A stretch of 64,000 nt of DNA from a bacterium (GTDB taxonomy: Bacteria; Patescibacteriota; Patescibacteriia; JACPHY01): assembly GCA_030646955.1 (NCBI GenBank), contig JAUSKM010000015.1, forward strand, positions 285 to 64,284. Reading direction: 5' to 3'. Below are positions 3,226 to 45,885 of the stretch, piece by piece. The position numbers were made by a program, and so were the translations under genes. Within the stretch, counting starts at the first letter, position 1; every line of letters starts with the position of its first letter. The notes under the pieces were generated by a model. That model had not been told where the DNA came from. It did no database searches and saw nothing but the letters and a program-made list of their open reading frames with translations.

Positions 3226-5157
3226 TCACCGCTTGAGCACGGCGATGTAGGCCTCCGGGGGGAGGTCAACACGGCCGGTGGCGCGCATGGCTTTCTTGCC
3301 TTTCTTCTGCTTCTCCAGGAGCTTCTTCTTGCGCGTAACGTCGCCGCCGTAGAGACCGGCAGTGACGTCCTTGCGGAGCGGCGAGATGCGGGCGCTGGCG
3401 ACAATCTTGCCACCGATCGCCGCCTGAATGCGCACCTCAAACTGGTGGCGCGGGATCACGTCCTTGAGCCGCTCGACGATCCGCCGCCCCACCTGCTGCG
3501 CTTCGTCCTCGTACACAATTGTCGCGAGCGATTCCTCTGGTTCGTCCACAACAAAAATGTCGAGGCGCCGCACGTTCGCCTCGCGGTGCTCGGAAATTTC
3601 GTAATTCATGGACGCGTACCCCTGGGAAACACTCTTGAGCCGATCATAAAAATCCACCAGCACCTTCGCAAGCGGCAGCTCGTACTTCAGGAGCGCGCGC
3701 CGTTGCCCCTCGATGCCGCCGGCAAGGTACTCCGTGGTGCGGTAGGTGCCGCGGTACTCCTGGCAGAGCTGCATGAGCCCGCCCACGTACTGCTCTGGCG
3801 TCACGATGTCCATGCGCACCCACGGCTCCTCAATTGCCGCGATGGACGACGGGTCCGGCAGCTCCTGCGGCGAACGGATGACTTCTCGCGCGCTGCTGTC
3901 CGCTTGGTGTTGCCGGCGCACCCAGTATGCAACACTCGGCACCGTCACCACCACGTCCATGTTGTGCTCGCGGATAAGCCGCTCCCGGAACACGTCCAGG
4001 TGGAGGAGGCCCAAGAATCCGCAGCGGAACCCCACGCCCAGTGCCTGCGAATGCTCCGGCTCCGCGACAAGCGCAGCATCGTTGAGGCGTAGCTGATCAA
4101 TGGCATCACGGAGCTGTTCCGTTTCATCCGAGTTCTTGGGGAACACGCCAGCGAACACCATGGGCCGCACGTCCTTGTACCCGGGGAGCGGCGCGGTTGC
4201 CGCGTACTTCGCGCCCGTCATAGTATCGCCAACGCGCACGCTTCGGATGTCCTTGAGGCCCGTCACGATGTATCCGATCTCCCCCGGCCCCACCTCGTCC
4301 GTCGCATAGAGCTTGGGGTTAAACGATCCCACCTCGCTGGCCTCTACCACCGTACCGGTGGTGAAGAATTTGAGTTTATCACCGCGCGCAACCGATCCGT
4401 CCACCACGCGCACATACGCGATGACGCCCCGAAAATCGTCGTACACAGAATCAAAAATGAGTGCGCGCAATCTCCGATCCCCCACCTCATCTTGAGGGGG
4501 GGGCGTCCGCACGGGTGCCGGTACCCGCTCCACCACCGCGTCGAGCAACATCGCAACGCCCTCGCCCGTCTTTCCGGAGACGGCAAGAATCTCCTCACGC
4601 GCGCATCCCAACAGCTCCATGATTTCCTGCGCCGTGCGCTCAACGTCCGCCGCCGGCAGATCAATTTTGTTGATCGCCGGAATAATGACGAGGTCCTGCT
4701 CCATCGCCAAGTACAGGTTCGCAATCGTCTGCGCCTGCACACCCTGCGTCGCATCTACGAGCAGGATTGCTCCCTCCACTGCCGCAAGCGAACGCGAGAC
4801 CTCGTACGTGAAGTCCACATGCCCGGGCGTGTCGATGAGGTGGAATATGTACTCCTCCTGATGATCCCCCACCTCCCGCTCGTCTGCGTCCGCCGGAGCG
4901 CGGAGGGAGGAGGGGCGAGGGGGGGTGGGCGTCCGCATCGTTCCGCCATGCGCGCCCAGCGTCCATCGCATGCGGACTGGCGCCAGCTTGATCGTAATCC
5001 CCCGCTCCTGCTCCAGGTCCATCTGGTCCAGCGTTTGCTGCTTCATGTCCCGGCTACTCACCGTTCCCGTGAGCTCCAACATCCGGTCCGCCAGCGTGGA
5101 TTTGCCGTGGTCAATGTGGGCGATGATGCAAAAATTGCGAATGGATGATGATTCCAT
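3226..5157 (-). CDS. lepA: Elongation factor 4 (LepA)
   Basis: MESSSIRNFCIIAHIDHGKSTLADRMLE...DTPGHVDFTYEVSRSLAAVEGAILLVDA. The ORF track extends upstream to 5394 as non-coding read-through. The gene carries two in-frame GC-hairpin insertions (see repeats at 4488 and 4864). Confidence 0.9.
   Translation of the reverse strand: MESSSIRNFCIIAHIDHGKSTLADRMLELTGTVSSRDMKQQTLDQMDLEQERGITIKLAPVRMRWTLGAHGGTMRTPTPPRPSSLRAPADADEREVGDHQEEYIFHLIDTPGHVDFTYEVSRSLAAVEGAILLVDATQGVQAQTIANLYLAMEQDLVIIPAINKIDLPAADVERTAQEIMELLGCAREEILAVSGKTGEGVAMLLDAVVERVPAPVRTPPPQDEVGDRRLRALIFDSVYDDFRGVIAYVRVVDGSVARGDKLKFFTTGTVVEASEVGSFNPKLYATDEVGPGEIGYIVTGLKDIRSVRVGDTMTGAKYAATAPLPGYKDVRPMVFAGVFPKNSDETEQLRDAIDQLRLNDAALVAEPEHSQALGVGFRCGFLGLLHLDVFRERLIREHNMDVVVTVPSVAYWVRRQHQADSSAREVIRSPQELPDPSSIAAIEEPWVRMDIVTPEQYVGGLMQLCQEYRGTYRTTEYLAGGIEGQRRALLKYELPLAKVLVDFYDRLKSVSQGYASMNYEISEHREANVRRLDIFVVDEPEESLATIVYEDEAQQVGRRIVERLKDVIPRHQFEVRIQAAIGGKIVASARISPLRKDVTAGLYGGDVTRKKKLLEKQKKGKKAMRATGRVDLPPEAYIAVLKR
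4488..4514. repeat. Small GC hairpin (CCCCCACCTC...GAGGGGGGGG) inside lepA
   Basis: cccccacctcatcttgagggggggg. It encodes the extra segment APVRTPPPQDEVGD relative to the canonical LepA alignment. Confidence 0.4.
4864..4934. repeat. GC-rich hairpin element inserted in-frame in lepA
   Basis: atcccccacctcccgctcgtctgcgtccgccggagcgcggagggaggaggggcgagggggggtgggcg. It encodes an insertion of about 30 aa, GAHGGTMRTPTPPRPSSLRAPADADEREVGDHQ, between the conserved KLAPVRM and EYIFHLIDTPGHVDF segments. Confidence 0.6.
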
Positions 5158-5200: not shown

Positions 5201-6802
5201 TCACCCTCGCGCCTCGTCTGCGCCACCAAAGGCACGGGGGACGGCGCGGAGGGCGTGACGACGGAGCGCGAGCGCAAGCGCGGTAATTTCATCGGATTTG
5301 AGGAGGATACCAACGGCAAGGTACGCCCCGAAGCCCAGGCCCCCTGCCAGGAAACCCTGCAACGCGATGCCGATGAATGTCTGTGTCCCCACAAGCGCGG
5401 CGATGCTGGGCTTCACCACCTGGATGACCACGCCCATGACGAGTGCAGCGATGAGGAATTTCCCGATGGCGATACCCGTACGCCGTCCATCCAGCCCGCC
5501 GGCGCGGCGACGCAATGCGACGAGGAGCGCGAGCGCCTGGACGATACCCGCGAGCGCCAACGCCAACGCGAGGCCCTGCGGACCAAATGTGCGACCCAGG
5601 AACCACGCAGCCGCGATGCCGAGCACATCCGCCGCCACGCTGATGACGAACGGCGTGCGCGTGTCCTCGAAGGCGTAAAACGCACGCGTCAAAAGCGGGA
5701 TGAGCATCGCAAAAAAGAGTCCAACGCCAAACGCCTCCACCGTTTCCAATGTTCGAACCGTATCCTCCCATCCAAACGCGCCAGCACCCAGGAGCACGCG
5801 GACGATCTGCGCTTTGAGTGCCAAGAGCATCACGACAGCAGGCAGCGCGAGGAGCGCGATCTGTCGAAACGTCGCAGAGAAATACTGCCGGAACTGTTCG
5901 ATGTCACCAGCAGCAACTGCGCTCGACAAGCGCGGGAATGCGGCGATGGCGAACGCGATGCCAATGAGCGCGATCGGCACATGTTGGATGTTCGCCGCAA
6001 ACGTAAACACCGCGAGCGATCCCGCGGCGAGCGTGGACGCAATGCCGGCGACGATGAGCAGCTGCACCTGCTGCGCGCCAAGCGATGCGACACGCGGGAG
6101 AAGGTTCACAAACAACAATCGCACCTCGCGATCGCGCCACGTTGGCGCCCACTGTACCCGCAGCCCCGTACGCGCCGCAGCCACCCATTGCATCGCAAGG
6201 TGCGCGGCAGCACCCAGCACCACGCCCCACGCGATTCCTACCGGGCCGAGCATCGGCGCCAGCGCGAGGACGCCGCCGATGATGCCAAGATTGTAGAGGA
6301 GCGGTGCCGCCGCAAACGCGAAGAAGCGCTCCTCTGCCTGCAATACGCTACCAATGACAGATGAGAGGCCTAGGAGTGCCGTCGCGATGAACAGGATGCG
6401 GCCAACCTGCACGGTGAGCGCAAGCTGCTCCGACGAAAACCCAGGCGCAATAGCCGCAAAGAGCGGCGTCGCCGCAAGTGCGCCAATGCTCCCACACAGC
6501 AGGAGGAGAAACGCGGCATTGGTGAACACCTGCGAGGCGAAACGATGTGCGCGGTCACGCCCACCCGCGCGCAGCCGAATAAAAATCGGCACGAACGCCG
6601 CGGAGAGCGCGGCGAGGCCAAGGAGGTTGAAGGCAAAATCCGGGATGCGGAATGCCGCGTAGTACGCGTCGAGTACCGACCCCGCACCAAACGTGGTGGC
6701 GAGGATGCGATCGCGCACGAGTCCCAGGATGCGGCTCGCAAGCGAGAGCGCTGCAATGAGCAGCGCGGAAGCGACGGTGGTTTGTCCCAAGCGCATAGGC
6801 AA
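5201..6802 (-). CDS. murJ: Lipid II flippase MurJ (MviN family)
   Basis: 533-aa polytopic membrane protein. N-terminus LGLVRDRILATTFGAGSVLDAYYAAFRIPDF is typical of MurJ. Confidence 0.85.
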   Translation of the reverse strand: MPMRLGQTTVASALLIAALSLASRILGLVRDRILATTFGAGSVLDAYYAAFRIPDFAFNLLGLAALSAAFVPIFIRLRAGGRDRAHRFASQVFTNAAFLLLLCGSIGALAATPLFAAIAPGFSSEQLALTVQVGRILFIATALLGLSSVIGSVLQAEERFFAFAAAPLLYNLGIIGGVLALAPMLGPVGIAWGVVLGAAAHLAMQWVAAARTGLRVQWAPTWRDREVRLLFVNLLPRVASLGAQQVQLLIVAGIASTLAAGSLAVFTFAANIQHVPIALIGIAFAIAAFPRLSSAVAAGDIEQFRQYFSATFRQIALLALPAVVMLLALKAQIVRVLLGAGAFGWEDTVRTLETVEAFGVGLFFAMLIPLLTRAFYAFEDTRTPFVISVAADVLGIAAAWFLGRTFGPQGLALALALAGIVQALALLVALRRRAGGLDGRRTGIAIGKFLIAALVMGVVIQVVKPSIAALVGTQTFIGIALQGFLAGGLGFGAYLAVGILLKSDEITALALALRRHALRAVPRAFGGADEARG

Positions 6803-6821
6803 CTCCCATTGTACCGCACAA

Positions 6822-6849
6822 CACGCATCCGGCCGAAGCCGGATGCGTG
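6822..6849. terminator. Stem-loop (11-bp stem, UUCG-type tetraloop) between hpf and murJ; possible attenuator/terminator
   Basis: acgcatccggc-ttcg-gccggatgcgt on the minus strand, downstream of the hpf stop. There is no clear U-tract. Confidence 0.3.
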
Positions 6850-6885
6850 TTTGATGTATTGAGCCAGAAGCTAGCAGCTCGCAGC

Positions 6886-7260
6886 TTATGACGCTACTGC
6901 TTCCTCCGAAACACGCCGCGCGCTTGCTCCCGCGTGCATCCCCTGCATCGTACCGGCCACTCGGTGACGCTTGCGCATCTGAAGCACCAGTTTGTCCTTC
7001 GCGAGGTCAATCGCTTCGCGGAGCGTATGATCGTCCTCCTCCGCAAGCCACTTGTATGTATCAACCGTCAGCGTCAGGGATACCTTAAACGCCTTCTTCT
7101 TGGCAAAGCGCTCCGCCCGGAACGTCAGCAACGGCTCTTCTGTTCCTGCAGGGAGACGCAGCAACGCCCGCTCAATCGTCTTTGCCTTCACGACGAAATA
7201 CTGCCGGCAGAAATGCTGGTCAAACTCACCCACCTTCTTGTAGCTGTAGGAAACCTTCAT
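6886..7260 (-). CDS. hpf: Ribosome hibernation-promoting factor / RaiA (YfiA/HPF family)
   Basis: MKVSYSYKKVGEFDQH...EEDDHTLREAIDLAKDKLVLQMRKRHR has the HPF-like pattern (cf. E. coli ...QDMYAAIDGLIDKLARQLTKHKDK). Confidence 0.65.
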   Translation of the reverse strand: MKVSYSYKKVGEFDQHFCRQYFVVKAKTIERALLRLPAGTEEPLLTFRAERFAKKKAFKVSLTLTVDTYKWLAEEDDHTLREAIDLAKDKLVLQMRKRHRVAGTMQGMHAGASARRVSEEAVAS

Positions 7261-7422
7261 AGGATAGGCACTCATTACTACAGCGCGGGCCAGCCGTTTC
7301 TTTCATTTCCGCCGCCCGCGTCGCATGGACAACATACCCCGCCTGTGGAAAAACTGCAAGGAGGCCCCAAGATGCCAAAAATGGGGCGGTTCTGCGATGC
7401 CGATGATGCGGGAGGTACTTGC

Positions 7423-7815
7423 TCAATCATCAACGCGCGTATTGTTTCGTGTATCGCCGAGTACTCCGAGCGCCGCTGCTGCCATGAACAAACCAAAATC
7501 GCGCACGGCGAGATCCCCGCGTGCCACGGCAGCGAGAATGGTCAAAAGGTGAAGCGCGACAACCGCGGCAACGATACGCACTCGCCACCCCACCACCAGC
7601 AACACGCCGAGGAGCACCTCCGCCACACCCACCACGCGCAGGAACTGCACGGGATCCATCGGCAACAATCCGATCATCCACGGCGGAACAAATCCCAGCC
7701 ACGACACGGTATCTGCAATCTTGCCATATCCAAAGATGAGCAGCACTGCACCCAACCCCAAACGCAACAGCAATGCCGCAGCGCTGGGGCCCGTAAAACG
7801 AGAAAGCATCCTCAT
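7423..7815 (-). CDS. DoxX-family membrane protein
   Basis: MRMLSRFTGPSAAALLLRLGLGAVLLIFGYGKI... contains four hydrophobic helices. The upstream 55 codons of the track ORF are repeat-element sequence (HCEHAKQSHT). Confidence 0.6.
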   Translation of the reverse strand: MRMLSRFTGPSAAALLLRLGLGAVLLIFGYGKIADTVSWLGFVPPWMIGLLPMDPVQFLRVVGVAEVLLGVLLVVGWRVRIVAAVVALHLLTILAAVARGDLAVRDFGLFMAAAALGVLGDTRNNTRVDD

Positions 7816-7840
7816 ACTTTGACAATAAAATTGGTGCGTG

Positions 7841-7876
7841 TGAGATTGCTTCGCATGCTCGCAATGACAATACTTA
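7841..7876. repeat. MITE-like palindromic element (GTGAGATTGCTTCGC...CTCGCAATGACA)
   Basis: gtgagattgcttcgcatgctcgcaatgacaata. Same module as 9917..9947. Confidence 0.6.
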
Positions 7877-7924
7877 GGAATAAGTGGACTTAACATTTTC
7901 GACACCGTTTTCAAACACGGTCTC

Positions 7925-9187
7925 CTACGGCTTGTATAATTCATCGATGGCCGGCTCCCACACCGTGCAATGACTTGCACCGCCTATCGCGAACAGTTTT
8001 TTGTCGGGGTAGCGCTTTTTCAGCTCGCGAAACACATCGATTGCATGTTCGTCGCGAACAATATTCATGTCCCGCAAGACATCGCTGGTGACCCTTCGTT
8101 CACCGACCAACTGCGGCTCGGTCATTTCGATAATCCTGGCCCTATCTTCTTTCCTTAACTCCGGATCATCGAACCGTTTCACAAGCTCCGCCAAGGAGAA
8201 GCCCATATGCCTCTGCAGCGAGGCATCGATATTTTCATTCGTGAGTTCGATGCCTAAAGAAACTGCCTCTTCAACGCCGCCCCCCGACAAAGCAACACCA
8301 CTACGTCTGCGTATCTCGTCGGCGGAGGGCCTCACATTGGATTCATGGGGTTTATTTTCGTCATAGGATGCATGGGCCCTGCGTGCGGCATAGGTGACCA
8401 TCCAGTCGGTCACATCTTGTGGTCCGTATTTGTGCTCACCGGTGGTTTCATCTTTCAACTTAAGGACCTCGCGAATCTGCTCGATTGTACGCGTATCCCA
8501 AGTCCGGACCTCTTTCCCTTCCCGCATCGCCAATAAAGCAATGTACGGCTCCTCCCCTTTTTCCGCGATAACCCGCGCGGGATCTTTTTTCAGGATTTCG
8601 CTCAACGACTCCCCCGGGTAGAAGTCCTCAAGCGAAAGTCCGCCTTCGATCAGCACGATGTCCGGATCTTCTTGCATCAACGCATCGACCGTGGGTTGCA
8701 TCGGCTCAACTGTATTTGCGTGCGCAAAACCACGTCCAATGAACTCCGCACCGTTTTCGGAACGTTTCTTGATCTCGTTGATTTCCTTACCGCTTTCGCG
8801 GGCCGCCTTCTCTTCCTCCGGCGTCAAAAGAAGGAGATGCAATTTCTCGATCTCAAGTGCATCCAAGCGCGCGCCACGATTACGCTCCACACGCACTTGA
8901 TCGTCGACCATATGCCCGTGTATTGCCTGCTTGGATTCTTTACTAATAATTCCTAGTGCCGCCTCCAATCCATCCACTTCTCCCTGATAATCCTCTTCTA
9001 GTGTTGCGCGCATTTCAGATTCGTCTTTCGAGGAATCCGCAGCATGAGACAGAAGACGAATATCTTGATCGATTTTCGTGATCCGCTCCTTGCGCACCTG
9101 GGCAATGGTCTCCGGGGTTTTCGCTGCAACTTTTTCCGGAACAGCCCCCATCGAATCCATTTTCGGCAGTTCTTTTCCCGAGGACAT
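7925..9187 (-). CDS. TraB/GumN-family-like protein (erythromycin esterase/TraB superfamily), likely horizontally acquired
   Basis: 420 aa. Contains a GxxH-like N-terminal motif (IGRGFAHANT) and a C-terminal xFAIGGASHC motif resembling the TraB-family VGAAHL motif. GC content is about 50% against about 66% in flanks. Flanked by direct repeats of the DoxX 5' region. Confidence 0.4.
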   Translation of the reverse strand: MSSGKELPKMDSMGAVPEKVAAKTPETIAQVRKERITKIDQDIRLLSHAADSSKDESEMRATLEEDYQGEVDGLEAALGIISKESKQAIHGHMVDDQVRVERNRGARLDALEIEKLHLLLLTPEEEKAARESGKEINEIKKRSENGAEFIGRGFAHANTVEPMQPTVDALMQEDPDIVLIEGGLSLEDFYPGESLSEILKKDPARVIAEKGEEPYIALLAMREGKEVRTWDTRTIEQIREVLKLKDETTGEHKYGPQDVTDWMVTYAARRAHASYDENKPHESNVRPSADEIRRRSGVALSGGGVEEAVSLGIELTNENIDASLQRHMGFSLAELVKRFDDPELRKEDRARIIEMTEPQLVGERRVTSDVLRDMNIVRDEHAIDVFRELKKRYPDKKLFAIGGASHCTVWEPAIDELYKP

Positions 9188-9205
9188 AAAAATACAACAA
9201 CCGCA

Positions 9206-9286
9206 TCAAGTCCGTTTTTCTCTCGTGCACAAACGCAACAGAAACGCCGCGATCTCGGAGCCCGTAAAGCGAAAAAACATCCTCAT
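9206..9286 (-). pseudogene. Duplicated DoxX 5' fragment (26 codons then stop)
   Basis: The minus strand reads MRMFFRFTGSEIAAFLLRLCTREKRT*. About 80 bp (9232-9292) duplicates 7770-7830, including gcccgtaaaRcgaRaaaRcatcctcatactYtgacaat. Confidence 0.55.
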
Positions 9287-9414
9287 ACTCTGACAATCAT
9301 CTTCGTCACCGCGTCCTGAAATACGCGAAACGCCTTCCGCCACTCTTTCTTGTGCGTGTATTGATCGTCATTGCTGACACGTACGCAGTACTGACACCCA
9401 CACCAATGATACCA

Positions 9415-9867
9415 TCAGTGTGCCTTCGGGTACGCGCAGTTTACCATCCACTGCACCCCGAACCGATCCCGAACACTCCCGTAGTAGTCACCCCATGGCT
9501 GGTCTGCAATATCCATCTCCACCGTGCCGCCGTCTGCAAGCGCATGGAAGATGCGATCCGCCTCCTCCTTGCTGTCGGGATGAATGGAAATGTACGCGTT
9601 ATTTCCCTGCACCAACTTCTGCCCAAGCGACGGCAGCGTGTCCGAAGCCATGAGCTTATCGTCGCCAACTGGAAGGCAAATGTGCATCATCCCGTTCTCC
9701 TCCTCTTTGGGAATGTGTACGCCTTCCATCGGCATGTCCTTGAACCGCACCCTGGAGCTGAACTCCCCGCCAAAGATGGAACGGTAAAACGTGAACGCCT
9801 CCTCTGCATTCCCGGCAAAGTTGAGATACGTGTTGAGTTTTATATTCTCCATTTTTCCATCTGTCAT
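9415..9867 (-). CDS. VOC-superfamily protein, PhnB-like (3-demethylubiquinone-9 3-methyltransferase-like domain)
   Basis: MTDGKMENIKLNTYLNFAGNAEEAFTFYRSIFGGEF...MHICLPVGDDKLMASD...DRFGVQWMVN matches PhnB/glyoxalase-like proteins. The start codon overlaps the first bases of the repeat element. Confidence 0.6.
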   Translation of the reverse strand: MTDGKMENIKLNTYLNFAGNAEEAFTFYRSIFGGEFSSRVRFKDMPMEGVHIPKEEENGMMHICLPVGDDKLMASDTLPSLGQKLVQGNNAYISIHPDSKEEADRIFHALADGGTVEMDIADQPWGDYYGSVRDRFGVQWMVNCAYPKAH

Positions 9868-9947
9868 TTCGAACGCAGCGAGAAATCTCACACGATCCAA
9901 TAACTGCCGACACGCGAGATTGCTTCGCGGACTCGCAATGACAGTAC
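9864..9947. repeat. MITE-like palindromic elements (two modules)
   Basis: gtcatttcgaacgcagcgagaaatctcacacg ... gcgagattgcttcgcggactcgcaatgacag. Confidence 0.65.
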
Positions 9948-9977
9948 GTATGTGATGCCGTGAAATTGCAATCGTTA

Positions 9978-11294
9978 TCATCCTTCGTACGCCCGCTGCA
10001 GCTGCTCCACATCAAACTTCTTCATCGCGAGAAATGCCTTCGTCACACGCGCACGACGTTCTGGATCCTCATCGCGCATCATCGCGTCCATTGCCGTGGG
10101 CACGATCTGCCAGGAAACGCCGTACGTGTCCTTGAGCCATCCGCATTGCTCTGCTTCCGGCACGGCAGAGAGCCGCTCCCAAAAATAATCGATCTCCGCC
10201 TGCGTATCGCACCGTATCAGGAACGAGAATGCCTCATTGAACGTAAACGCATGCTTATGCGCGCTGTCCATCGCTATAAACTGCTGCCCTACCAACGCAA
10301 ACTCTCCGTACATCACCGTCCCCTCCTTATCCGGCGCAGCATTCGCACCGTACCTACTCATATCGCCCACCTTCGCATCGCGAAATACTGACGCATAGAA
10401 CCGCATCGCTTCCTCTGCTTTCCCGCACCGCTCTCCAACGAACAGAAGCGATGGGGTGATGCGCTGGATACTCTTGCGACCGTCCATGCATATGAGCTGC
10501 CACGAGAGGCCATACCGGTCTTGCACCCATCCGTACCGCGTACTGAACGGATATGCACCAAGCTCCATCAGTACTTTCCCGCCATCCGCAAGCTGCTCCC
10601 AGAGCGCGTCCACCTCCGCAGGCGTTGCGCACGCGACCATGAATGAGATTGCCGGAGTAAATTGGAAGTACGGCCCTGCGCTGATGCACATGAACTCCTG
10701 CCCCGAGAGCACAAAGGACACAACATCTACCGCGCCAGAAGGCGTCCCCTGCAACGTAGTTACATACTCCACGCGCGAATCCGGAAAAAGCGACGTGTAA
10801 AATTCCGCCGCCTCTCGCGCCTCCTTGTCGTACCAAAGGTGAGGCACAATTTTTTGCATAGTGGCAACCTCCACCGTGCCGCGCTCGACGTACCGCTTGA
10901 AATTGGTGAGGATCGCCTGCCAACCATCCCGCTGCATCTGCTCCGGATTCAGCGACTCCGGATCAAACGTCTCGGTCACGTATACGTGCTCCAGCATCTG
11001 CGTGAACGTCACGCGCACATGCCGACCGTCATCCATGTCGTACTCGATCAATGCATACTTGCGAACGGCAGCATGCGTTCCCGAAAAATCAAACCTTGCG
11101 CTGCCATCCTTTGCAGCCATCACCGTCGTAAATCGTCCACCCACACGTACATCATTCTCCGCCGACGGCGCCTCCTACTCATCCGACGCAAACGCCCAGC
11201 CGACAATGTGCTCCGACTGCGTAAAACACTCCCACACCCTCGCCATGGGAGCGCGCACATCCACGTCCACTGTGATTGGCTGTTGTTTGTTCAT
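9978..11294 (-). pseudogene. SRPBCC (AHSA1-like) + tandem PhnB/VOC-domain protein interrupted by an in-frame TAG at a conserved Trp position
   Basis: [76 protein letters not shown]... is in a single frame (RC of cta at 11175-11177). Homologues read ...FASDDWHAPYAENDLRVGG..., so TGG is replaced by TAG here. Confidence 0.55.
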
Positions 11295-11541
11295 GTGATT
11301 CTTCACTGTAGCAGCGCCATGATGACCTTTTCGTGAATTGAATTCATCCGACCATGTCAGCGTACCACAACGCAAAACGCCCCTGCTTTCGCTCATAATA
11401 CTCTTCCCTCGCAGAGCAACGAAAAACCTACCGCCATCAATGCATACGCAGGAACACCACGTGCACTGTACTGCATGTATACAAGGAAAGACCGCCCCAC
11501 GAAGGGCGGCCTTGTACCAACAACGGAGCACCGTACGTCGC

Positions 11542-12378
11542 TCAATCACCTGAGAGAAACTCGGCCCATGCCGCACACTCCTCGAGGTCGTCGGTATCGA
11601 TGAGGCGGTCGCAATCGTTGTCGACGTGATCATTGCACACCTCTTCATTGCACGCGGGATCGCAGGTGAGCAACGCTACAGGAGCATCACACTCCCAAAA
11701 CCCCTCCTGCAACAATCCGTCGTTCTCCCATATGCAGATCACGCCGATCCAATCACCGTCGTCCGTCACCCCGTCGCAGTCGTTGTCGACGCCATCGCAG
11801 ATTTCCATGGGACATGCTGCGGTCGAATCGAACACACAATCGCCATCATCCCAATCCACCATGCCATCGCAGTCGTTGTCGGCACGATCATGACACAACT
11901 CGACATTCTCCTCACAGGACGGACCTCCAGCGATAGGGAGCCCGCATGAGAGCGTTGTGTGTGGCACGCCCTCTGTACCGGGAGCCCCGCACGTACGCAG
12001 GCCTGCATTCACTGCATCCCAGTACTCCATGTAACACGCCTGCTCTTCCCAAGGACCATTGTCCGTGATACCGTCGCAGTCGTTATCGATACTATCGCAG
12101 CGCTCCTCAGAGCACTCGGTCGCGTCATCGCCGGAATCATCATCCGCGCTGACGGCATCATCGTCGGATGTGTCGCCGTCGTCGTTTGCGGTTGCTTGGG
12201 AGTCATCGTCGGTGATGACTCCATCGTCGTCCGCTGCCATCGTATCGTCATCGACGGAAGTTGCGACGCTATCATCGTCTCCAACCGGAAAACTTCCTTC
12301 CGGCATATCGCTCCCGCACGCCTGCACTGCCGTTATGAGCGCCGTGATCATGGAAAGAACCAACCATACGGTACGCAT
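11542..12378 (-). CDS. Secreted Cys/Asp-rich repeat protein (DNDCDG 'putative metal-binding' type repeats)
   Basis: Signal peptide MRTVWLVLSMITALITAVQAC. At least four repeats of C-x-D-x-DNDCDG-x-x-D(W) (CDSIDNDCDGITDNG, ADNDCDGMVDWDDGDC, CDGVDNDCDGVTDDGDW, VDNDCDRLIDTDD). Acidic low-complexity N-terminal region. Confidence 0.55.
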   Translation of the reverse strand: MRTVWLVLSMITALITAVQACGSDMPEGSFPVGDDDSVATSVDDDTMAADDDGVITDDDSQATANDDGDTSDDDAVSADDDSGDDATECSEERCDSIDNDCDGITDNGPWEEQACYMEYWDAVNAGLRTCGAPGTEGVPHTTLSCGLPIAGGPSCEENVELCHDRADNDCDGMVDWDDGDCVFDSTAACPMEICDGVDNDCDGVTDDGDWIGVICIWENDGLLQEGFWECDAPVALLTCDPACNEEVCNDHVDNDCDRLIDTDDLEECAAWAEFLSGD

Positions 12379-12591
12379 CCGCACCTCCTTCTTTGTTCCC
12401 CGCAAATATACATCCAAGCAGCCTCTCCGTCAAGTTCCCCAAAATATATTCACCAAAAAGCTAATCGTTCGACGTGTTTCCACGGATGTCAAAAACCCCA
12501 CCGAAGCAGCGAGGCCATTGACATCTCCGCATCGTGAACAATGCTAGAGCCGCGGTACAGGAACATCGATAATACATCCGACTCCCCACAA

Positions 12592-13260
12592 CTAAAACTT
12601 CCTGACCTTCATGATGCAAGCATCGTCCACGCCTCCCTTTGCGCTCGCATACATCGCGTAGAGAAAGGCATCTCGGTCGATTGCATGTTGGCCGCCGAAT
12701 TCCTCACCCCAATCGGGGTCGTTGACGTAGACATTCTCTTGATCGATGCCGGTCACGACATTGAAATGAATGCTGAATCTTGGCGGGAGGTCAGTATTGT
12801 GAAGAAACCAATGTGTGAGAGGAATAAATACGGGCCGCTCTTCGTTTACTTCCACTTCGATATCACTCATGAGCGGAACCCGCGGCGTGATAGTGCCGCC
12901 TGCATCCACAAATTGAAGAAAGTGATCGAGAGCGATCGGATCACATTCTCCTTTCATGAGCGGTTTGAGCGACCAGAGATACCTCTTGAGCTCATCCGTA
13001 TTCTTGAACGATGAAAAGAGCGAAAAAAGGGATGGGTGCATCGTAATAATCTCGACCGAAAAACCTCGCTTAAGCAAGTACGTTCCGACTTGCGGGGTAA
13101 CTGTCCCCCACGAGTACGTTCCGAGTTCCTTTTTCATCTCATCAAAGGAAAACGACACCTTGTAGTACGCAAGCAACATCGCAAGACATGCGGGACCACA
13201 ATCGCTGGATCCTTCAGCTTGTCGAACAAGAGGAACAGATAGTTTCGTCATACTACCCAC
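12592..13260 (-). CDS. Papain-fold peptidase C39-like domain protein
   Basis: QAEGSSDCGPACLAMLLAYYKVSF matches the C39 Q...CG.ACL.M..YY(G) catalytic Cys motif. A downstream H/D pair is present (HFNVVTGID...NDPDWG). GC content is about 45-50%. Confidence 0.55.
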   Translation of the reverse strand: MGSMTKLSVPLVRQAEGSSDCGPACLAMLLAYYKVSFSFDEMKKELGTYSWGTVTPQVGTYLLKRGFSVEIITMHPSLFSLFSSFKNTDELKRYLWSLKPLMKGECDPIALDHFLQFVDAGGTITPRVPLMSDIEVEVNEERPVFIPLTHWFLHNTDLPPRFSIHFNVVTGIDQENVYVNDPDWGEEFGGQHAIDRDAFLYAMYASAKGGVDDACIMKVRKF

Positions 13261-13417
13261 AGTCTACCAGTTCGAATCCCATCACGGGAGCAAACAAAAC
13301 CCCAGCATTGCTGCTGAGGATTTGTTGGCTCGGGCTCGTGGACCTTGATCGTCTTAACGGGTCAATTGCTCATTGGATTTCGAGAGGGCACGACTGACCA
13401 GAAATAATTAGGAAATC

Positions 13418-14095
13418 TCAAGGCAGATTGGACTCCCCCACTGCGACCAGCTTTCCATCCCGAAGATACACATGCAATGTCCAGTCTCGATGATCTTCCC
13501 AGGGGGCATAGGTTAGCACGGTGTAGCCATCGGACGCACTCGTTTTCACTGGTTCACCAAACGCTCGAAAAACAGTCACCGTATCGATTCCGACAACCTC
13601 CCCATGCGAACGCGGATCGGTAAACTTAATGAGTCGGGCACTCTTTTCATGCTGATTAGCCCGCTCTCGAAGATACTCCTTGGCATGGGAGCCACTCATC
13701 CAATACGCACGCTCCCAAAATGGAACCTGAATATGCTTTGTGACCTGTTCCCCACCTCGTCGAAGCGGATTGTCATCAATCTGTAAACGAAACTCTCGCA
13801 ACCATGGCGTCCAAACGACCATCCAAATAGTGAGCACGAACACAACGAATGCGGACGGGAGATACACAATCGCGACCGTTTTCGGCACCCGCTTCTTCAC
13901 CGTGAAAACCATGACCATGGTGAAGATGGCAACCGCGAGAATAACAGACAGCACAAGCATACCAACCTCAAACCCCACACCTCGACCCTCGAGTGCAGAA
14001 CTCCACCCCGCAAGAAAAGCACACGCGACCATGAAACCCGAGAATGCCGCCAGGAAAACCATGCAAACGCTCAACAAGTTTGGTTTTTTCATCAT
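13418..14095 (-). CDS. Hypothetical membrane protein (3 TM helices)
   Basis: 225 aa. N-terminal half has three long hydrophobic helices, followed by a soluble C-terminal domain. Low-GC DNA. Confidence 0.5.
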   Translation of the reverse strand: MMKKPNLLSVCMVFLAAFSGFMVACAFLAGWSSALEGRGVGFEVGMLVLSVILAVAIFTMVMVFTVKKRVPKTVAIVYLPSAFVVFVLTIWMVVWTPWLREFRLQIDDNPLRRGGEQVTKHIQVPFWERAYWMSGSHAKEYLRERANQHEKSARLIKFTDPRSHGEVVGIDTVTVFRAFGEPVKTSASDGYTVLTYAPWEDHRDWTLHVYLRDGKLVAVGESNLP

Positions 14096-14214
14096 AGCTT
14101 CGTGATACCTACCAAGAGGACGAAATGCTCAAGAATCGCAACGCTTCATCTTGACCGTTGTGCTCCCAAGTGTACCAAAAGTAATCGGACCACCCAAGGG
14201 TGATCCGATTACTT

Positions 14215-14285
14215 CTCGGGGACCTGGATTCGAACCAAGATAAACGGATTCAGAGTCCGTTGTCCTACCATTAGACGATCCCCGA
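14215..14285 (-). tRNA. tRNA-Gln (anticodon CUG)
   Basis: RC is TCGGGGATCGTCTAATGGTAGGACAACGGACTCTGAATCCGTTTATCTTGGTTCGAATCCAGGTCCCCGAG. It folds as a cloverleaf with acceptor TCGGGGA/TCCCCGA, anticodon loop CTCTGAA and T-loop TTCGAAT. Confidence 0.6.
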
Positions 14286-14368: not shown

Positions 14369-16171
14369 CTACTCCATAATGGGCGCGGCTGCGGTGCCTC
14401 GTGCCGGTTCGCTCGCTGCGATGACGCGGGAAGAAGCGAACACCTCCAGGGCGGCGTCAACGGTGGTGTCGCCGGTGGCGGGGCGGCAGGCGCGGTCGAG
14501 CTCTTCAAAGTGCTCCACCGCAATCGCGACGGGATCCAGGTGGAGGGGCGTGCCGACGATGCGTGCGATGGCGCTGGTGAGCGGCTCTATGATGCCGGGC
14601 TGCCGCACTTTCTCCGCGTGGAGCTTGTAGCGGAAGCCGATGGTGAGCGTCCCGTCTGCAATGCGTTGCGGGCGACCGCCTTCCAGGAGGTACGGGATGG
14701 AGCGGTTGACGTCCGCGAGATCGCGGATGATGTGGTGCCATTGTTGCTGGACTTTCGAGAGCGCCTCGGTGGCGCTCTGGATGACGGTGGATGTTGGAAG
14801 TTGCTCCCTCCTCCCGGCGGAAGGGGGAGGAATAAAACGCACCCCCTCTGACTCCCCCTCTTGAAGAGGGGGAGGAACCGGATCGGATGTATCTGTTACC
14901 GTCGTTGGGAGTTTGATGCTTGCAGGGGTACGAGCGCGCGAGGCGTGTTGGGGGGTACGGGCTGCACCGCCGGTGGTGGCGGGTGGAGCATCGTCGTCAT
15001 TGCTCCGCGATGCGTCTCGCTGAGACGAGGCGAGCTGCGCGGGATTCATTTTGCCTGGTGATGCGCTCGCTGCGGGCGCTGCGGGAACGAATGGGGAGCG
15101 CGCGAGGAGCGTAAGGACGGCAACCTCGAGGAGGAAGAACGGACGGTCTGCACGACCGATGCGATCCAGGAGTTCCGTGAACATGCGAAGCGCGAACACC
15201 TGTGCCGTCGCAACGGCACCTTGCTGGGCGGCAGCGCGTGCGGCGCTGCGCAGCTCGTTGATGATGTCGCGACAAAACGCATCCGCATCGCATCCCTCGG
15301 CTGATGCAGCATCGAGCGTGGCCAGGGCCAATGCGGTGTCGCCGGCACCAACCGCGCGAAGCAGCGTCTGGACATGCACCATGTTTGATTGCGGGAGCAC
15401 GAGCGCGGCAACATCGGCCGTCACTCGCTTCCCGCCCACCGCCATGAGCTGCCCCAACAGGGATTCTGCGTCACGCACGGAGCCGTCTGCCGCGCGGACT
15501 ACCTGCGCGAGCACCTCGTCATCCACGGCAACATCCTCTACCCCTGCAAGCATCCGGAGCCGCTCCGTGAGCGTCCCATCCCCCACGCGCCGGAACGTAA
15601 AATGCTGGCACCGTGACGTGATCGTCTCCGGCACCTTCTGCATTTCCGTTGTCGCAAGGATGAAGTGGACGTGCTCTGGCGGCTCCTCCAGCGTCTTGAG
15701 GAGCGCATTAAAGGACGCCGTCGAGAGCATGTGCACCTCGTCAATGATGTACACCTTCTTTGCTGCAACTGCGGGGGCGATACGCACCGCCTCGATGATG
15801 TACTCACGCACCTTCTCCACCTGCGTGTTGGATGCCGCATCAATCTCCACGACATCCATGCAACGTCCTGCGGTAATTTCCTCGCACCGGATGCAGGCGT
15901 TACAAGGCACGGGAAGTGTTTGCTTCGACCGGTGCTTCGCGCGAGTTTCTTCGTCGCTCCGCTCCTCGGAATGACGAGGAGCGAGGCAATTCACCGCCTT
16001 CGCCAGGAGCCGCGCGGTGGTGGTCTTTCCAACGCCGCGCGGACCGGAGAAAAGGTACGCATGCGCAACACGACCCGCCGCGATAGCCGCGACGAGCGTG
16101 CGCGTGACATGCTCCTGCCCCACGACGTCCTCAAACGTCTGCGGGCGATGCTTACGATACAGTACGGGCAT
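14369..16171 (-). CDS. dnaX: DNA polymerase III subunit gamma/tau
   Basis: MPVLYRKHRPQTFEDVVGQEHV...FSGPRGVGKTTTARLLAKAVNC...EIDAASNTQVE. Long A/P-rich C-terminal region. Contains two in-frame repeat insertions (15950 and 14803). Confidence 0.9.
   Translation of the reverse strand: MPVLYRKHRPQTFEDVVGQEHVTRTLVAAIAAGRVAHAYLFSGPRGVGKTTTARLLAKAVNCLAPRHSEERSDEETRAKHRSKQTLPVPCNACIRCEEITAGRCMDVVEIDAASNTQVEKVREYIIEAVRIAPAVAAKKVYIIDEVHMLSTASFNALLKTLEEPPEHVHFILATTEMQKVPETITSRCQHFTFRRVGDGTLTERLRMLAGVEDVAVDDEVLAQVVRAADGSVRDAESLLGQLMAVGGKRVTADVAALVLPQSNMVHVQTLLRAVGAGDTALALATLDAASAEGCDADAFCRDIINELRSAARAAAQQGAVATAQVFALRMFTELLDRIGRADRPFFLLEVAVLTLLARSPFVPAAPAASASPGKMNPAQLASSQRDASRSNDDDAPPATTGGAARTPQHASRARTPASIKLPTTVTDTSDPVPPPLQEGESEGVRFIPPPSAGRREQLPTSTVIQSATEALSKVQQQWHHIIRDLADVNRSIPYLLEGGRPQRIADGTLTIGFRYKLHAEKVRQPGIIEPLTSAIARIVGTPLHLDPVAIAVEHFEELDRACRPATGDTTVDAALEVFASSRVIAASEPARGTAAAPIME
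14803..14878. repeat. Pair of GC-rich hairpins inside dnaX linker region
   Basis: ctccctcctcccggcggaagggggagg and ccccctcttgaagagggggagg. They encode ...DPVPPPLQEGESEGVRFIPPPSAGRRE.... Confidence 0.55.
15950..15992. repeat. MITE-like element module inserted in-frame in dnaX AAA+ domain
   Basis: ttcgtcgctccgctcctcggaatgacgaggagcgaggcaattc. It encodes APRHSEERSDEETRAKHRS between the conserved AKAVNC and PCNACIRC segments (E. coli has NCETGITATPCGVCDNC). Confidence 0.6.
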
Positions 16172-24802: not shown

Positions 24803-24966
24803 AGCCGGAATTGCCACGTCGAGGACTCCTCGCAATGACAATACCGGTGTCATTGCGAGTCCGCGAAGCAATCCCGGCCATGTGCAGCACTGTGCTGCGT
24901 CGCCATCGCAAGAGTCCTGCTATGGCCGGGATTGCTTCGTCGCTTCGCTCCTCGCAATGACAACGT
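24803..24966. repeat. Cluster of at least three MITE-like modules (GTCATTGCGAG...GCGAAGCAATCCCGGCCAT and inverses)
   Basis: ccggaattgccacgtcgaggactcctcgcaatgaca / gtcattgcgagtccgcgaagcaatcccggccat / atggccgggattgcttcgtcgcttcgctcctcgcaatgacaacg, lying between the membrane-protein gene and the dnaJ stop. Confidence 0.65.
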
Positions 24967-26189: not shown

Positions 26190-26312
26190 CCCTCCCTCTC
26201 CGCTTCCAGGGGAGCGGTGGTGCGATACCGCGCCACCGCACAGTCATACATGGCCACCTCTCCCCCTCTAGCTCCCCCTCCCCCCATGAGTACGTGCGGG
26301 GAGGGGGAGGAC
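26190..26312. repeat. Composite GC-rich hairpin element (about 120 bp), intergenic dnaK/dnaJ
   Basis: cctccctctccgcttccaggggagcgg...catggccacctctccccctctagctccccctcccccatgagtacgtgcggggagggggagg. Near-identical to 45800-45878 and, inverted, to 60161-60240. Confidence 0.65.
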
Positions 26313-26579
26313 AAGAACATCGGAGTCGCTGGAGACACTTTTCGCATCCGCCACAAATGGAAGCGCCAGCGCGATACCAAGCATCGCGAGGATCAACACC
26401 TTCGTACGACGTTGCATACAAAACTGCGGAAAATAAAAAAGCCGTCCGGCACAACGGCACAGGCGCGGCGTGCCTATACACTGTTGATGGTATACCCCCC
26501 CACAACACTGTAAAGGGTACGTCACGCACACCAGCGGAGCCGTTTCCGGCTCCGCTGGTGTCGCGTTATGCACTGCGCG

Positions 26580-29778: not shown

Positions 29779-29858
29779 CTTTGCGAGTCCGTGAGGGCGC
29801 AGCAATCTCTCTGCCTGATTGGCCGGGATTACCACGTCGCGGACTCCTCGCAATGACA
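29779..29858. repeat. MITE-like modules in hrcA promoter region
   Basis: cctttgcgagtccgtgagggcgcagcaatctc (degenerate) + ctgattggccgggattaccacgtcgcggactcctcgcaatgaca. Confidence 0.55.
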
Positions 29859-43884: not shown

Positions 43885-44952
43885 TCACTGCGCTGCTTGC
43901 ATGACCACGCGCGCAAGCGTGGCGGCGGCGTTGTCGGGAAACATGGTGGCGATGGAACGACCGAGTTTGGCGCGACGGTTGGCATCCTCGAGAAGCGCAT
44001 GGATGCGTTGTGTGAAGACGCCGGGCGCGACGAGGGCCCGCGAATTCCAAACCTCCGCAGCACCGCGCTCGTTGAGTTGCTGCGCGTTGTCTTCCTGGTG
44101 AGTGGATGGCATGGGCACCAGCACCGTCGGTTTACCCAGGCACCCCAGCTCCGCGATCGTCCCCATGCCCGCACGACTCACCACAAGATCCGCAGCAGCG
44201 AGCGCGGGAATCATATCGTCGGCGAGAAACTCAAATTGTCGATAGGATCCGGCCCACTCCCCCTTCCCAGCGGGAGTGGGGGGAACATTGCCCTGCTTCC
44301 CTTTCCCCGTCACATGAATCACGTCGGCAATCGCCGTCAGCTCGGGCAATGCGGCCCAGACAAGGTGGTTGAGCGCCATTGCGCCGGTGCCACCGCCAAG
44401 AATGAGGAGTACGTGTCGATTTCCGGAGAATCCAAAATGCCGCTGTGCTTCGCGCACATCCGCCACGCACGCATCGCGCACGGCGGCACGCACCGGCACG
44501 CCGATGCCCTCAGCGCCAAATGTCGCCGTCCGCGCGGACGAAAACCGCGCCACAAGCGTGTTGGCCAATGATGGACGCGCGTCCAGTTGGTGGATGACGA
44601 TCGGGATGCGCAGCACGCGCGCCGCAAGCATCACCGGCACCTGCACGTATGACCCCGCGCCCACCACCGTATCTGGCCGCTCCCGACGCAGAAACGCAAG
44701 TGCGCGCACGAACGCCCATGCAATTGCAAACGCATCCACGATATTCCGCCCATCCAGGTACCGTCGCAGCTTGCCTGCCGGAAACGCGATGAACCGGATC
44801 CCGTCGCGCTCCACCAACACCCGCTCCGGCCCCCGCCGCGTCCCAATCCACATCATCACCGCCCGCGGCCGCACATGCCGAATCTCCTCCGCGACAGCCA
44901 AGAGCGGGGTCACCGATCCCAATGTTCCGCCGCCGGTGAAGAGGATGGTCAT
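43885..44952 (-). CDS. murG: UDP-N-acetylglucosamine--N-acetylmuramyl-(pentapeptide) pyrophosphoryl-undecaprenol N-acetylglucosamine transferase
   Basis: MTILFTGGGTLGSVTPLLAV...GT28 N- and C-terminal domains. A small GC hairpin (44256-44286) lies within a variable loop. Confidence 0.85.
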   Translation of the reverse strand: MTILFTGGGTLGSVTPLLAVAEEIRHVRPRAVMMWIGTRRGPERVLVERDGIRFIAFPAGKLRRYLDGRNIVDAFAIAWAFVRALAFLRRERPDTVVGAGSYVQVPVMLAARVLRIPIVIHQLDARPSLANTLVARFSSARTATFGAEGIGVPVRAAVRDACVADVREAQRHFGFSGNRHVLLILGGGTGAMALNHLVWAALPELTAIADVIHVTGKGKQGNVPPTPAGKGEWAGSYRQFEFLADDMIPALAAADLVVSRAGMGTIAELGCLGKPTVLVPMPSTHQEDNAQQLNERGAAEVWNSRALVAPGVFTQRIHALLEDANRRAKLGRSIATMFPDNAAATLARVVMQAAQ

Positions 44953-45878: not shown

Positions 45879-45885
45879 TAAGGAG

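Follow-up and report, generated by a model that had tools for sequence, protein, structure and literature searches.

The locus described here lies in a window of 64,000 nucleotides, the window being the whole stretch of DNA that was analyzed. Between an HPF-like gene and a tRNA-Gln gene, it contains an intact DoxX gene, a low-GC gene (ORF420), a truncated DoxX stub, and two copies of a direct repeat. The features are listed below by window position.

6886 to 7275, minus strand: HPF-like gene (weak match to Pfam PF02482), the conserved right-hand neighbor of DoxX
7423 to 7815, minus strand: intact DoxX gene, 130 aa (Pfam PF07681, 6.1e-9)
7759 to 7826, minus strand: core of direct repeat copy 1, with 11 nt upstream of DoxX and DoxX codons 1-19
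7827 to 7893, minus strand: 67-nt insertion splitting repeat copy 1, with one REP-like palindromic unit
7894 to 7907, minus strand: upstream piece of direct repeat copy 1, CGGTGTCGAAAATG, placed by gap-tolerant alignment
7908 to 9229, minus strand: insert proper, 1,322 nt, made up of a 42-nt leader, ORF420, and a 17-nt trailer and bounded by the ends of the 82-nt repeat
7925 to 9187, minus strand: ORF420, the cargo gene, with an N-terminal helical region and a TraB/TIKI/EreA-ChaN-fold domain
9206 to 9286, minus strand: remnant ORF, a truncated DoxX stub of 26 codons, MRMFFRFTGSEIAAFLLRLCTREKRT, followed by TGA
9230 to 9311, minus strand: direct repeat copy 2, 82 nt, with 25 nt upstream and codons 1-19 of the DoxX 5' end
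9312 to 14214, minus strand: accessory block A, low in GC (0.50-0.57 compared to 0.61 for the window), without an integrase
14215 to 14285, minus strand: tRNA-Gln(CTG), found by ARAGORN and Rfam, the conserved left anchor of a variable interval

The initial annotation had described a direct duplication of about 80 bp at the 5' end of DoxX, and alignment of the two regions confirmed a direct repeat of 77 nt without gaps or 82 nt with gaps. The repeat search paired 7759-7835 with 9230-9306 (77 nt ungapped, 78% identity), which is the longest two-copy direct repeat of the window. The duplication itself stood, but its register had first been placed 9 nt away from the correct one; with the true offset of 1471, 7770 pairs with 9241. 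Gapped local alignment of the repeat core, 7826 to 7759 against 9297 to 9230, covered 68 nt at 84% identity. Its score of 79 was far above chance, as 500 shuffles gave 18.5 ± 2.3 with a maximum of 27. A 20-mer at the start codon occurs at only these two sites in the window and is identical at 19/20 nt between the copies. The repeat extends 14 nt further upstream, where 9311 to 9298, CGGTGACGAAGATG, matches 7907 to 7894 at 12/14 positions; an equally good match was seen in 2 of 20,000 spacer shuffles, and only 4 sites in the whole window match this piece equally well. The reconstructed full repeat is 82 nt long, with 70 of 83 aligned columns identical (84%), and consists of 25 nt upstream of the ATG and DoxX codons 1-19. 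Perfect runs common to both copies are now at most 12 nt, and the copies differ at 16-22% of positions, plus indels. Copy 1, which is proximal to DoxX, is split by the 67-nt insertion, and copy 2 is unsplit. The proposal that the DoxX promoter was also duplicated was not supported, since the repeat reaches only 25 nt upstream of the ATG and no sigma-70-like promoter was found on the gene strand in a scan of 7300-10100. The same scan found no terminator on that strand.

One explanation, raised by the initial annotation itself, is an assembly collapse or expansion artifact. This is a general risk of metagenome assemblies, and nothing beyond that risk points to it here. The artifact is excluded for practical purposes by the 16-22% divergence of the copies with their indels, by the insertion present in one copy only, and by an independent Logan contig, L004 (SRR13727527), which matches window positions 6613-9872 at 100% identity over 3,260 nt and spans both copies.

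The intact DoxX protein scored 36.8 bits against PF07681, compared to a gathering cut-off of 23.6, and is therefore a member of this family. It is orthologous to the first DoxX of three relatives (L041, L042, and L045), with 55-57% identity. The ORF in the upstream copy begins with an ATG at 9286, which had earlier been read at 9292, and its stop is at 9208-9206. The 26-codon length reported for this remnant was correct, but it is not derived from DoxX throughout; only codons 1-19 are. Two in-frame TGAs were seen, and TGA recoding was rejected because TGA ends 30 of the 58 long ORFs. The stub stops midway through transmembrane helix 1. It breaks off abruptly within the codon run with no homology past the break, and the spacer after the stub showed no homology to the DoxX body or to the regions upstream of homologues. 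The stub is closest to the resident DoxX N-terminus and not to the DoxX2 paralogue of relatives. With 19 homologous codons, it cannot be a functional DoxX member. It differs from intact DoxX across these codons by 2 synonymous and 6 non-synonymous changes, and at the two positions that could be polarized (P10 and L15) the intact copy has kept the orthologue state and the change is in the stub. The stub appears to be a decaying pseudogene.

Another possible explanation for the upstream copy is that it was kept as a translation-initiation or leader signal, in the form of a 26-codon uORF, for ORF420. The near-identity of the copies at the start codon would fit such a role, as would the placement of the small ORF, which is in the same frame as ORF420 and ends 18 nt (6 codons) before the ORF420 ATG. 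However, a shared frame is a 1-in-3 coincidence, the peptide is unconserved with 6 of its 8 changed codons non-synonymous, and the mismatches are spread unevenly, but not significantly so (roughly 0.08, an estimate). RNA structure in the stub region was not beyond that of shuffles (z = +1.2), and no stub-like leader was found upstream of the ORF420 homologues. Retention as a leader is very unlikely.

The insertion that splits copy 1 holds a REP-like unit at about 7830-7876, TGTCATTGCGAG...GCGAAGCAATCTCACACG, which is 86% identical to 9916-9950 and has related copies at 24.8 kb and 29.8 kb. The CTCGCAATGACA motif was found at 8 sites in the window compared to 0.48 expected, which places the unit in a REP/MITE-like family. 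Like REP/BIME-like or MITE-like repeats, the hairpins are short imperfect palindromes with a conserved terminal motif, TGTCATTGCGAG, and are present in several intergenic copies per genome, singly or in inverted pairs. They differ from those repeats in that the window yielded neither a RAYT nor any other transposase and there is no clear target-site duplication. The terminal motif is also present in a Patescibacteria MAG (L005). The family is absent from Rfam, which reported three tRNAs only in the window, and the RNA structure of the elements gave no z-score beyond shuffles.

It had been suggested that the repeat elements travel with acquired cargo. This was contradicted by the dispersal of the hairpin, whose copies at 24.8 and 29.8 kb are in normal-GC regions, by its presence in one repeat copy only, and by its absence from the flanks of the ORF420 homologues in all four other genomes. 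Since the hairpin splits only one copy, either its arrival postdates the duplication or the other copy has lost it. Comparison of the sequences strongly indicates that it is a resident element, independent of the cargo and inserted later, and the REP-like hairpins of this genome would then be resident latecomers and not passengers of acquired DNA.

ORF420 has an N-terminal helical region at approximately residues 28-119, and its alpha/beta fold is common to solved members of the TraB/TIKI/EreA-ChaN superfamily, to which it belongs at the level of fold. The signature of the TraB/TIKI superfamily is said to be paired GxxH motifs and a conserved Glu. G153-H156, E181, and G403-H406 are invariant in an 8-sequence alignment of the ORF420 family, and the invariant residues of the protein include H156, E181, R378, D379, H381, and H406. 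As a candidate assignment, ORF420 is probably a metal-dependent hydrolase. Neither ORF420 nor its 7 close homologues had a Pfam match even at E <= 10. ORF420 falls outside the TraB/PrgY/GumN family PF01963, for which the gathering score is 26.8 bits, and distant members of the ORF420 HMM family scored only 19.9-24.6 bits against it. In contrast to the TraB/PrgY/GumN-TIKI-EreA/ChaN superfamily, the ORF420 family has an extra N-terminal module of ~110 residues, which is either long and helical or short and Cys-containing. The family has 92 clusters among 1.84 billion representatives, and no ORF420 relative was found on viral contigs. It is a rare and horizontally moving family with a TraB/TIKI-type fold and no Pfam model, and such a model could be built.

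The low GC content first noted for the gene between the copies was borne out, at 0.523 compared to 0.624 ± 0.028 for the long ORFs of the window. Its GC3 is 0.577 compared to 0.698 ± 0.057, only 2.1 SD under the mean. Part of the low GC reflects a composition rich in Glu, Lys, and Asp. The body of ORF420 is 82-83% identical at the nucleotide level in contigs L043 (111 kb, 47% GC) and L002; these contigs had no similarity to the window besides ORF420, and the homology stops at the stop codon. The neighbors of ORF420 are different in all four other genomes. These comparisons argue strongly that ORF420 is foreign and has spread horizontally. It is also, judged by a dN/dS of 0.10-0.24 and a native N-terminus, MSxKxLPK, that is conserved in the homologues, a functional gene. 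The L002 homologue is flanked by a 21-nt direct repeat (19/21 identical; 0 of 300 shuffles were as good), and the homologues in L001, L003, and L043 have no significant flanking direct repeats. An inverted repeat at the L043 homologue was borderline, with 2 of 300 shuffles.

A mobile element could also have produced this arrangement, either as a transposon or MITE with its target-site duplication or as an integrase islet whose attL and attR restored the gene end. The direct repeats at the flanks, the REP/MITE-like element at one edge, and the 21-nt repeat around the L002 homologue are all consistent with this, and a tRNA gene is nearby, at 14215-14285, where it bounds the 6.4-kb block between tRNA-Gln and DoxX. 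However, a Pfam search of all ORFs of at least 100 aa in 7816-14214 found no transposase, integrase, or recombinase. No inverted repeats flank the insert (7908 compared to 9229), and the tRNA 3' end is not repeated. Transposon target duplications are 2-14 bp, and a flanking repeat of 82 nt is far beyond that range. The REP-like unit is located inside a repeat copy and not at the end of the insert, and three homologues have no significant repeats at their flanks. With no transposase, terminal inverted repeats, or short target duplication, the insert does not belong with transposons, IS elements, or MITEs, and a mobile-element origin is highly improbable.

Block A encodes a 225-aa membrane protein, a peptidase C39-like protein, and a MopE-type Cys-rich secreted protein (Pfam), along with an AHSA1-PhnB gene with an in-frame TGA and a 146-aa VOC/PhnB-like protein (VOC146). 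Proteins of unrelated phyla match VOC146 at 75-80% identity, whereas backbone genes reach at most 57%. A tRNA-derived att repeat was sought by comparing tRNA-Gln and its 3' flank with the repeat flanks and the whole block, and it was rejected, as only chance-level matches were seen; the best match of the tRNA 3' 36 nt within the block was 10-15 nt, also at chance level. The stub lies inside the 6.4-kb low-GC block, and the initial annotation had missed that the event took place within it. The nearest DoxX relative, L045, has the order DnaX, tRNA-Gln, 7 nt, DoxX, HPF, without block A, and L041 has DnaX, tRNA-Gln, rhomboid, DoxX, and, further on, HPF. An HPF homologue follows DoxX in L045, L041, and L042, and the interval past tRNA-Gln was variable in every lineage seen. 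These gene orders point firmly to an ancestral proximity of tRNA-Gln and DoxX. Since the nearest DoxX is only 57% identical, the pre-insertion state is reconstructed across a large evolutionary distance. No empty-site genome was found in the collections searched, where the MurJ anchor reached at most 41% identity in GTDB genomes, DoxX homologues reached at most 57%, and VOC146 homologues were numerous and came from unrelated phyla.

Relatives L041, L042, L046, and L047 carry two tandem DoxX genes, which indicates that the locus tolerates two. A tandem duplication of the DoxX segment could thus have come first, with the region from codon 20 to the end of the upstream copy later replaced by ORF420. 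However, the second DoxX of the relatives is downstream and is a dissimilar paralogue, whereas the stub is of the resident DoxX1 type. This order also needs two events, and the replacement would have had to end exactly at the unit boundary, 6-17 nt from the ORF420 stop. We consider it improbable. The tandem paralogue itself was rejected as the source of the repeat, being downstream and dissimilar.

The explanation that we favor, with a probability of about 60%, is that an ORF420 fragment integrated in the 5' end of DoxX and duplicated ~82 nt of the target. This agrees with the initial view that an insertion or recombination event left its footprint at the locus, with a truncated DoxX 5' end as the upstream copy. 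Foreign DNA of 1.32 kb with one gene, ORF420, would have entered the 5' end of DoxX, and its integration would have duplicated 25 nt upstream of the gene together with codons 1-19. The downstream copy would have remained joined to the DoxX body, leaving the gene intact, and the upstream copy would have been severed after codon 19 to become the decaying stub 18 nt before ORF420. The site of the event would have been the variable accessory block that accumulated between tRNA-Gln and DoxX. Later, the 67-nt segment with the resident REP-like hairpin would have entered the upstream part of the downstream copy. Block A and ORF420 may have been acquired in either order.

Since no transposase, integrase, inverted termini, or short target duplication was found, non-site-specific routes of integration are the likeliest. 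One route would be a single crossover of a circularized fragment with short DoxX 5' homology; the other would join the DNA illegitimately at a staggered break, with fill-in. After either event, the copies would have diverged by ~16%, mainly in the stub, which is unconstrained. The perfect runs, at 12 nt or less, fall below the RecA minimal processing segment and are too short for RecA-type recombination. Therefore, a homologous crossover requires that the copies were far more alike at the time of the event. A single crossover with a circle that has one homologous segment leaves a flanking duplication, as seen in E. coli (109-950 bp; PMC3240628). Against the favored explanation, simple break-repair insertions do not usually duplicate as much as 82 nt of the target.

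It is also possible, though unlikely, that the stub came from a donor through homology-facilitated illegitimate recombination (HFIR), with ORF420 already upstream of DoxX. A linear donor fragment with tRNA-Gln, block A, and DoxX codons 1-19 would have been anchored on the DnaX/tRNA side, and its other end would have been joined illegitimately just upstream of ORF420. In the mirror image, the incoming DNA would have been ORF420 and DoxX, with its anchor on the DoxX/HPF side. A published proposal traces orphan gene fragments beside newly acquired genes to HFIR (PMC5361080). The foreign look of block A, with its low GC and the similarity of VOC146 to unrelated phyla, is in line with a donor origin, as are the variable interval after tRNA-Gln and the abrupt end of the stub. 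However, HFIR needs a well-matched anchor and, therefore, a close donor, so that the 16-22% difference would still need later decay. No donor-type arrangement was found, and the copies also have 25 nt of non-coding upstream sequence in common, which local duplication fits at least equally well. With a donor-derived stub, the copies would be orthologues of two lineages, and their divergence would measure the distance between donor and recipient and not the age of the event. The claim that the event can be dated thus applies only in a rough sense, and on condition that the duplication was an in-situ one.

As a mark of gene gain, the scar is an ordinary one; it lies in a variable region near a tRNA gene and is not a new kind of element. 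The locus offers a base-resolved case of single-gene gain without recognizable mobile machinery in a poorly known, probably Patescibacteria-like lineage, where the gene was gained in a hotspot with a tRNA gene on one side and a conserved neighbor on the other. A further and very doubtful idea is that genes of the ORF420 family are single-gene cassettes, complete in themselves, that pass between unrelated (probably Patescibacteria-like) genomes and insert at or near gene starts with long homology-dependent target duplications. If so, such insertion would capture host gene expression signals. Hints of this are the gene body that is 82% identical at the nucleotide level in an unrelated genome, where the homology goes no further than the stop codon, the 82-nt repeat here and the 21-nt repeat at L002, and the in-frame stub ORF 18 nt upstream.

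Scars of this type have already been described for illegitimate and single-crossover integration, and current understanding is not overturned. Integrative elements are known to duplicate or replace the end of a target gene, as is the case for tRNA-targeting islands and for phage 21 and e14 in icd. The locus shares with them imperfect gene-end direct repeats flanking the insert, an intact target, and a position beside a tRNA gene. In contrast to those elements, it lacks both an integrase and an identical core; what is repeated is the 5' end of a protein gene, and the tRNA is unduplicated.

Campbell-type single-crossover integration, which does not depend on a recombinase encoded by the element, leaves a duplicated homologous segment on either side of the insert; one copy of the gene is truncated and the other is intact (E. 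coli lacZ; PMC3240628). Here, however, the segment is only 82 nt, its copies are now 84% identical, and neither a circle nor a plasmid or donor is known. How a circle came to carry a DoxX 5' fragment would itself need an explanation. The orphan fragments attributed to HFIR, found in T6SS effector/immunity arrays and as orphan 3' ends of Rhs genes, share with this locus a foreign gene beside a conserved gene, a gene-fragment scar, and no mobility genes (PMC5361080). Those cases involve 3' fragments and immunity genes in selected arrays, whereas here the only fragment is a 5' stub, apparently decaying, from the gene of a housekeeping-type membrane protein.

Every gene of the DoxX locus is carried on the minus strand, and the features are as follows, read 5' to 3':

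16198->14369, minus strand: DnaX-like clamp-loader gene
14285->14215, minus strand: tRNA-Gln(CTG)
Between tRNA-Gln and the DoxX stub, minus strand: accessory-gene block, 4.9 kb (block A)
ATG 9286, stop 9208-9206, minus strand: DoxX stub, 26 codons
9229->7908, minus strand: insert proper, 1,322 nt (42-nt leader, ORF420 and 17 nt)
9187->7925, minus strand: ORF420
About 7876->7830, minus strand: hairpin repeat element
7815->7423, minus strand: intact DoxX
7275->6886, minus strand: HPF-like gene
6802->5201, minus strand: MurJ

The direct duplication reported in the initial annotation is real, although its register was 9 nt off. A repeat search found an ungapped pair of 77 nt (7759-7835 and 9230-9306; 78% identity, spacing 1471), the longest two-copy direct repeat of the window. 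By gapped local alignment, the core was 68 nt with 84% identity (7826->7759 against 9297->9230), and its score of 79 was far above that of shuffles (18.5 +/- 2.3). In copy 2, the copy in the stub, the 14 nt directly upstream of the core are CGGTGACGAAGATG (9311->9298). Their counterpart in the DoxX-proximal copy 1, CGGTGTCGAAAATG (7907->7894), lies 67 nt upstream of the core. When the 98-nt spacer was shuffled 20,000 times, just 2 shuffles gave an equally good match, and only four sites across the whole window matched the piece at 12 of 14 positions. Gap-tolerant alignment also recovered this split arrangement. Since the upstream piece recurs beyond the gap, the full repeat is 82 nt (70/83 columns identical), with copy 1 split by 67 nt of inserted sequence (7893->7827) in which the hairpin unit lies. 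An assembly artefact was ruled out, as the copies differ by 16-22% plus indels and this insertion, and a Logan contig (L004, SRR13727527) is 100% identical to window 6613-9872.

The stub does translate as a 26-codon ORF, MRMFFRFTGSEIAAFLLRLCTREKRT*, but its DoxX homology is limited to codons 1-19, of which two differ synonymously and six non-synonymously from those of DoxX. The promoter was also said to be duplicated. This is not shown, because the repeat extends no more than 25 nt upstream of the ATG and a promoter scan found no promoter-like site on the gene strand. The stub ORF and ORF420 share a reading frame, with one TGA and six codons between them (…REKRT*CGCCIFMSSGK…, window 9158-9286, minus strand). 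This is probably a 1 in 3 coincidence. A functional leader, a mobile element and an artefact jointly take up what little probability the other readings leave; no transposase, inverted termini or short target duplication was found for the insert.

ORF420 is horizontally acquired. Its GC content, correctly described as low, is 0.523 compared to 0.624 +/- 0.028 among long ORFs of the window, and its GC3 is 0.577 compared to 0.698 +/- 0.057. Its homologues have entirely different neighbours, in host genomes of 38-67% GC, and none was found on viral contigs. In L043 (a 111-kb contig, 47% GC) and L002 (a JGI contig), the gene body is 82-83% nucleotide-identical to the window, nothing aligns outside it and DNA homology ends at the stop codon. 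No DoxX fragment was found upstream of the ORF420 homologues. The idea of an insertion scar with a foreign cargo of TraB fold is upheld. The stub could instead be donor-derived, through homology-facilitated illegitimate recombination (HFIR), which we consider unlikely.

Other repeats were seen on contigs of the homologues. In L002, a 21-nt direct repeat (4634-4654 and 5915-5935; 19/21 identical, 0/300 shuffles as good) brackets the gene; no significant flanking direct repeat surrounds the other three homologues. In L043, about 170 nt directly upstream of the homologue form a nested palindrome (7679-7847; 38- and 40-nt arms with 78-84% complementarity), and a further hairpin lies downstream (9259-9381). 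The same contig has 216-nt tandem repeats within a helicase-like gene (10051-10592), where they code for a series of zinc-ribbon-like units (HPTKNAPLTAETV...CPAC).

The rare, mobile ORF420 family is the most unusual component of the locus, with only 92 clusters among 1.84 billion representatives in a profile search. ORF420 and its close family (all eight members) had no Pfam or NCBIfam match, even at E <= 10, and a profile search of PDB sequences found nothing. Invariant residues in the family alignment include GFAH(153-156), E181, RDMNxxRDEH(372-381) and GASH(403-406), which we take to resemble the paired GxxH/Glu signature of the TIKI/TraB superfamily, and some distant members matched PF01963 weakly, below threshold. 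The label TraB/GumN-like is thus apt for the fold and the superfamily, but not as Pfam membership. With dN/dS of 0.10-0.24 against four homologues, ORF420 is under purifying selection, and it retains the native N-terminus of its family. In columns 1-130 of the alignment, two alternative N-terminal modules precede one conserved domain, which hints that modules have been swapped. One module is long and helical, with about 110 residues (ORF420, P0002, P0006, P0007); the other is short and has a CxxC-containing motif (P0003, P0004, P0005).

The nearest non-self DoxX (P0010, 57% identity) is on contig L045, where the order is DnaX, tRNA-Gln, 7 nt, DoxX, HPF. Contig L041 reads DnaX, tRNA-Gln, rhomboid, DoxX1, DoxX2, ..., HPF, and L042, L046 and L047 agree with it. 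From these gene orders, the backbone DnaX, tRNA-Gln, DoxX, HPF is conserved, and what varies is the interval that follows the tRNA. In the window this interval is 6.4 kb (14214->7816; GC 0.50-0.57 vs 0.61 overall) and has genes for proteins of five kinds: membrane, C39-like peptidase, MopE-type Cys-rich, AHSA1-PhnB and VOC/PhnB-like. Neither an integrase (Pfam) nor a copy of the tRNA 3' end was found in the accessory block. The stub lies within the low-GC interval, at the junction of ORF420 and the older-looking block A. Tandem duplication of DoxX followed by replacement is a quite improbable origin for it.

Several accessory genes have features of their own. The VOC/PhnB-like protein (146 aa, 9415-9855, minus strand) shares 75-80% identity with proteins from archaea and from a number of bacterial phyla (Methanoperedens, Aminicenantes, Latescibacterota, Desantisbacteria, Anaerolineales), strikingly conserved and promiscuous compared to the backbone genes, which had no match above 41-57%. 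The product of the MopE-type gene (11542-12417, minus strand) is secreted, rich in Asp and carries repeated Cys motifs (PF11617); the gene itself has internal DNA repeats (11608-12100). The AHSA1/SRPBCC-PhnB fusion gene (11648->9978, minus strand) is broken by one in-frame TGA (11177-11175, within 11100-11300), at a position where the family conserves a Trp. The likely cause is a TGG->TGA nonsense mutation or else an error in sequencing; recoding is unlikely because TGA is otherwise the commonest stop codon in this genome (30/58 long ORFs).

Repeat elements had been proposed to travel with the cargo. The hairpin unit (TGTCATTGCGAG ... GCGAAGCAATCYC) has eight motif copies in the window compared to 0.48 expected, single or in inverted pairs, several of them in normal-GC regions (24.8 and 29.8 kb). 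The motif is absent from the homologue contigs L001, L002, L003 and L043, occurs in an unrelated Patescibacteria MAG, and interrupts just one repeat copy. Given this dispersal, absence and single interruption, the hairpin is a resident REP-like element that either came in once the repeat had been duplicated or has since disappeared from the other copy; it was not carried with the cargo. The 7830-7876 unit (GGCCGGGATTGC...CTCGCAATGACA) forms clusters of inverted pairs at 24804-24962 and 29822-29858; the copies at 24804 and 29822 are 92% identical over 37 nt. A second palindromic family, with abundant runs of C and G (CTCCCCCTCCCC...GGGGAGGGGGAG), occurs at 26245-26315, 45812-45882, 60165-60209, 545-572, 14804-14831, 44257-44284 and 56233-56260, with two 71-nt copies 89% identical.

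Overall, the observation was confirmed after correction of its coordinates, with a repeat that proved to be longer and split, and its interpretation was partly supported. We favor, at a probability of roughly 60%, that the insert integrated in situ and duplicated a target segment. No perfectly matching stretch between the copies now exceeds 12 nt; given the requirements of RecA, a homologous crossover implies that they were once more alike and diverged later. At the two polarisable positions, P10 and L15, intact DoxX has the orthologue state and the stub the derived state, which fits neutral decay of the stub. The footprint was considered datable. As a rough relative date, stub divergence (about 0.2 substitutions per site) and ORF420 synonymous divergence from its closest homologues (0.77-0.85) are compatible with an insertion younger than the homologue split, a comparison that holds only for a duplication made in situ. 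The locus is a neat but unexceptional example of how a variable region beside a tRNA gene acquires a gene. Two known routes could give such a flanking duplication without element-encoded enzymes. In the first, a circular molecule with one homologous segment integrates by a single crossover; in E. coli this produced duplications 109-950 bp long (PMC3240628). The second is illegitimate joining, with HFIR as one form, a proposed source of orphan gene fragments (PMC5361080).
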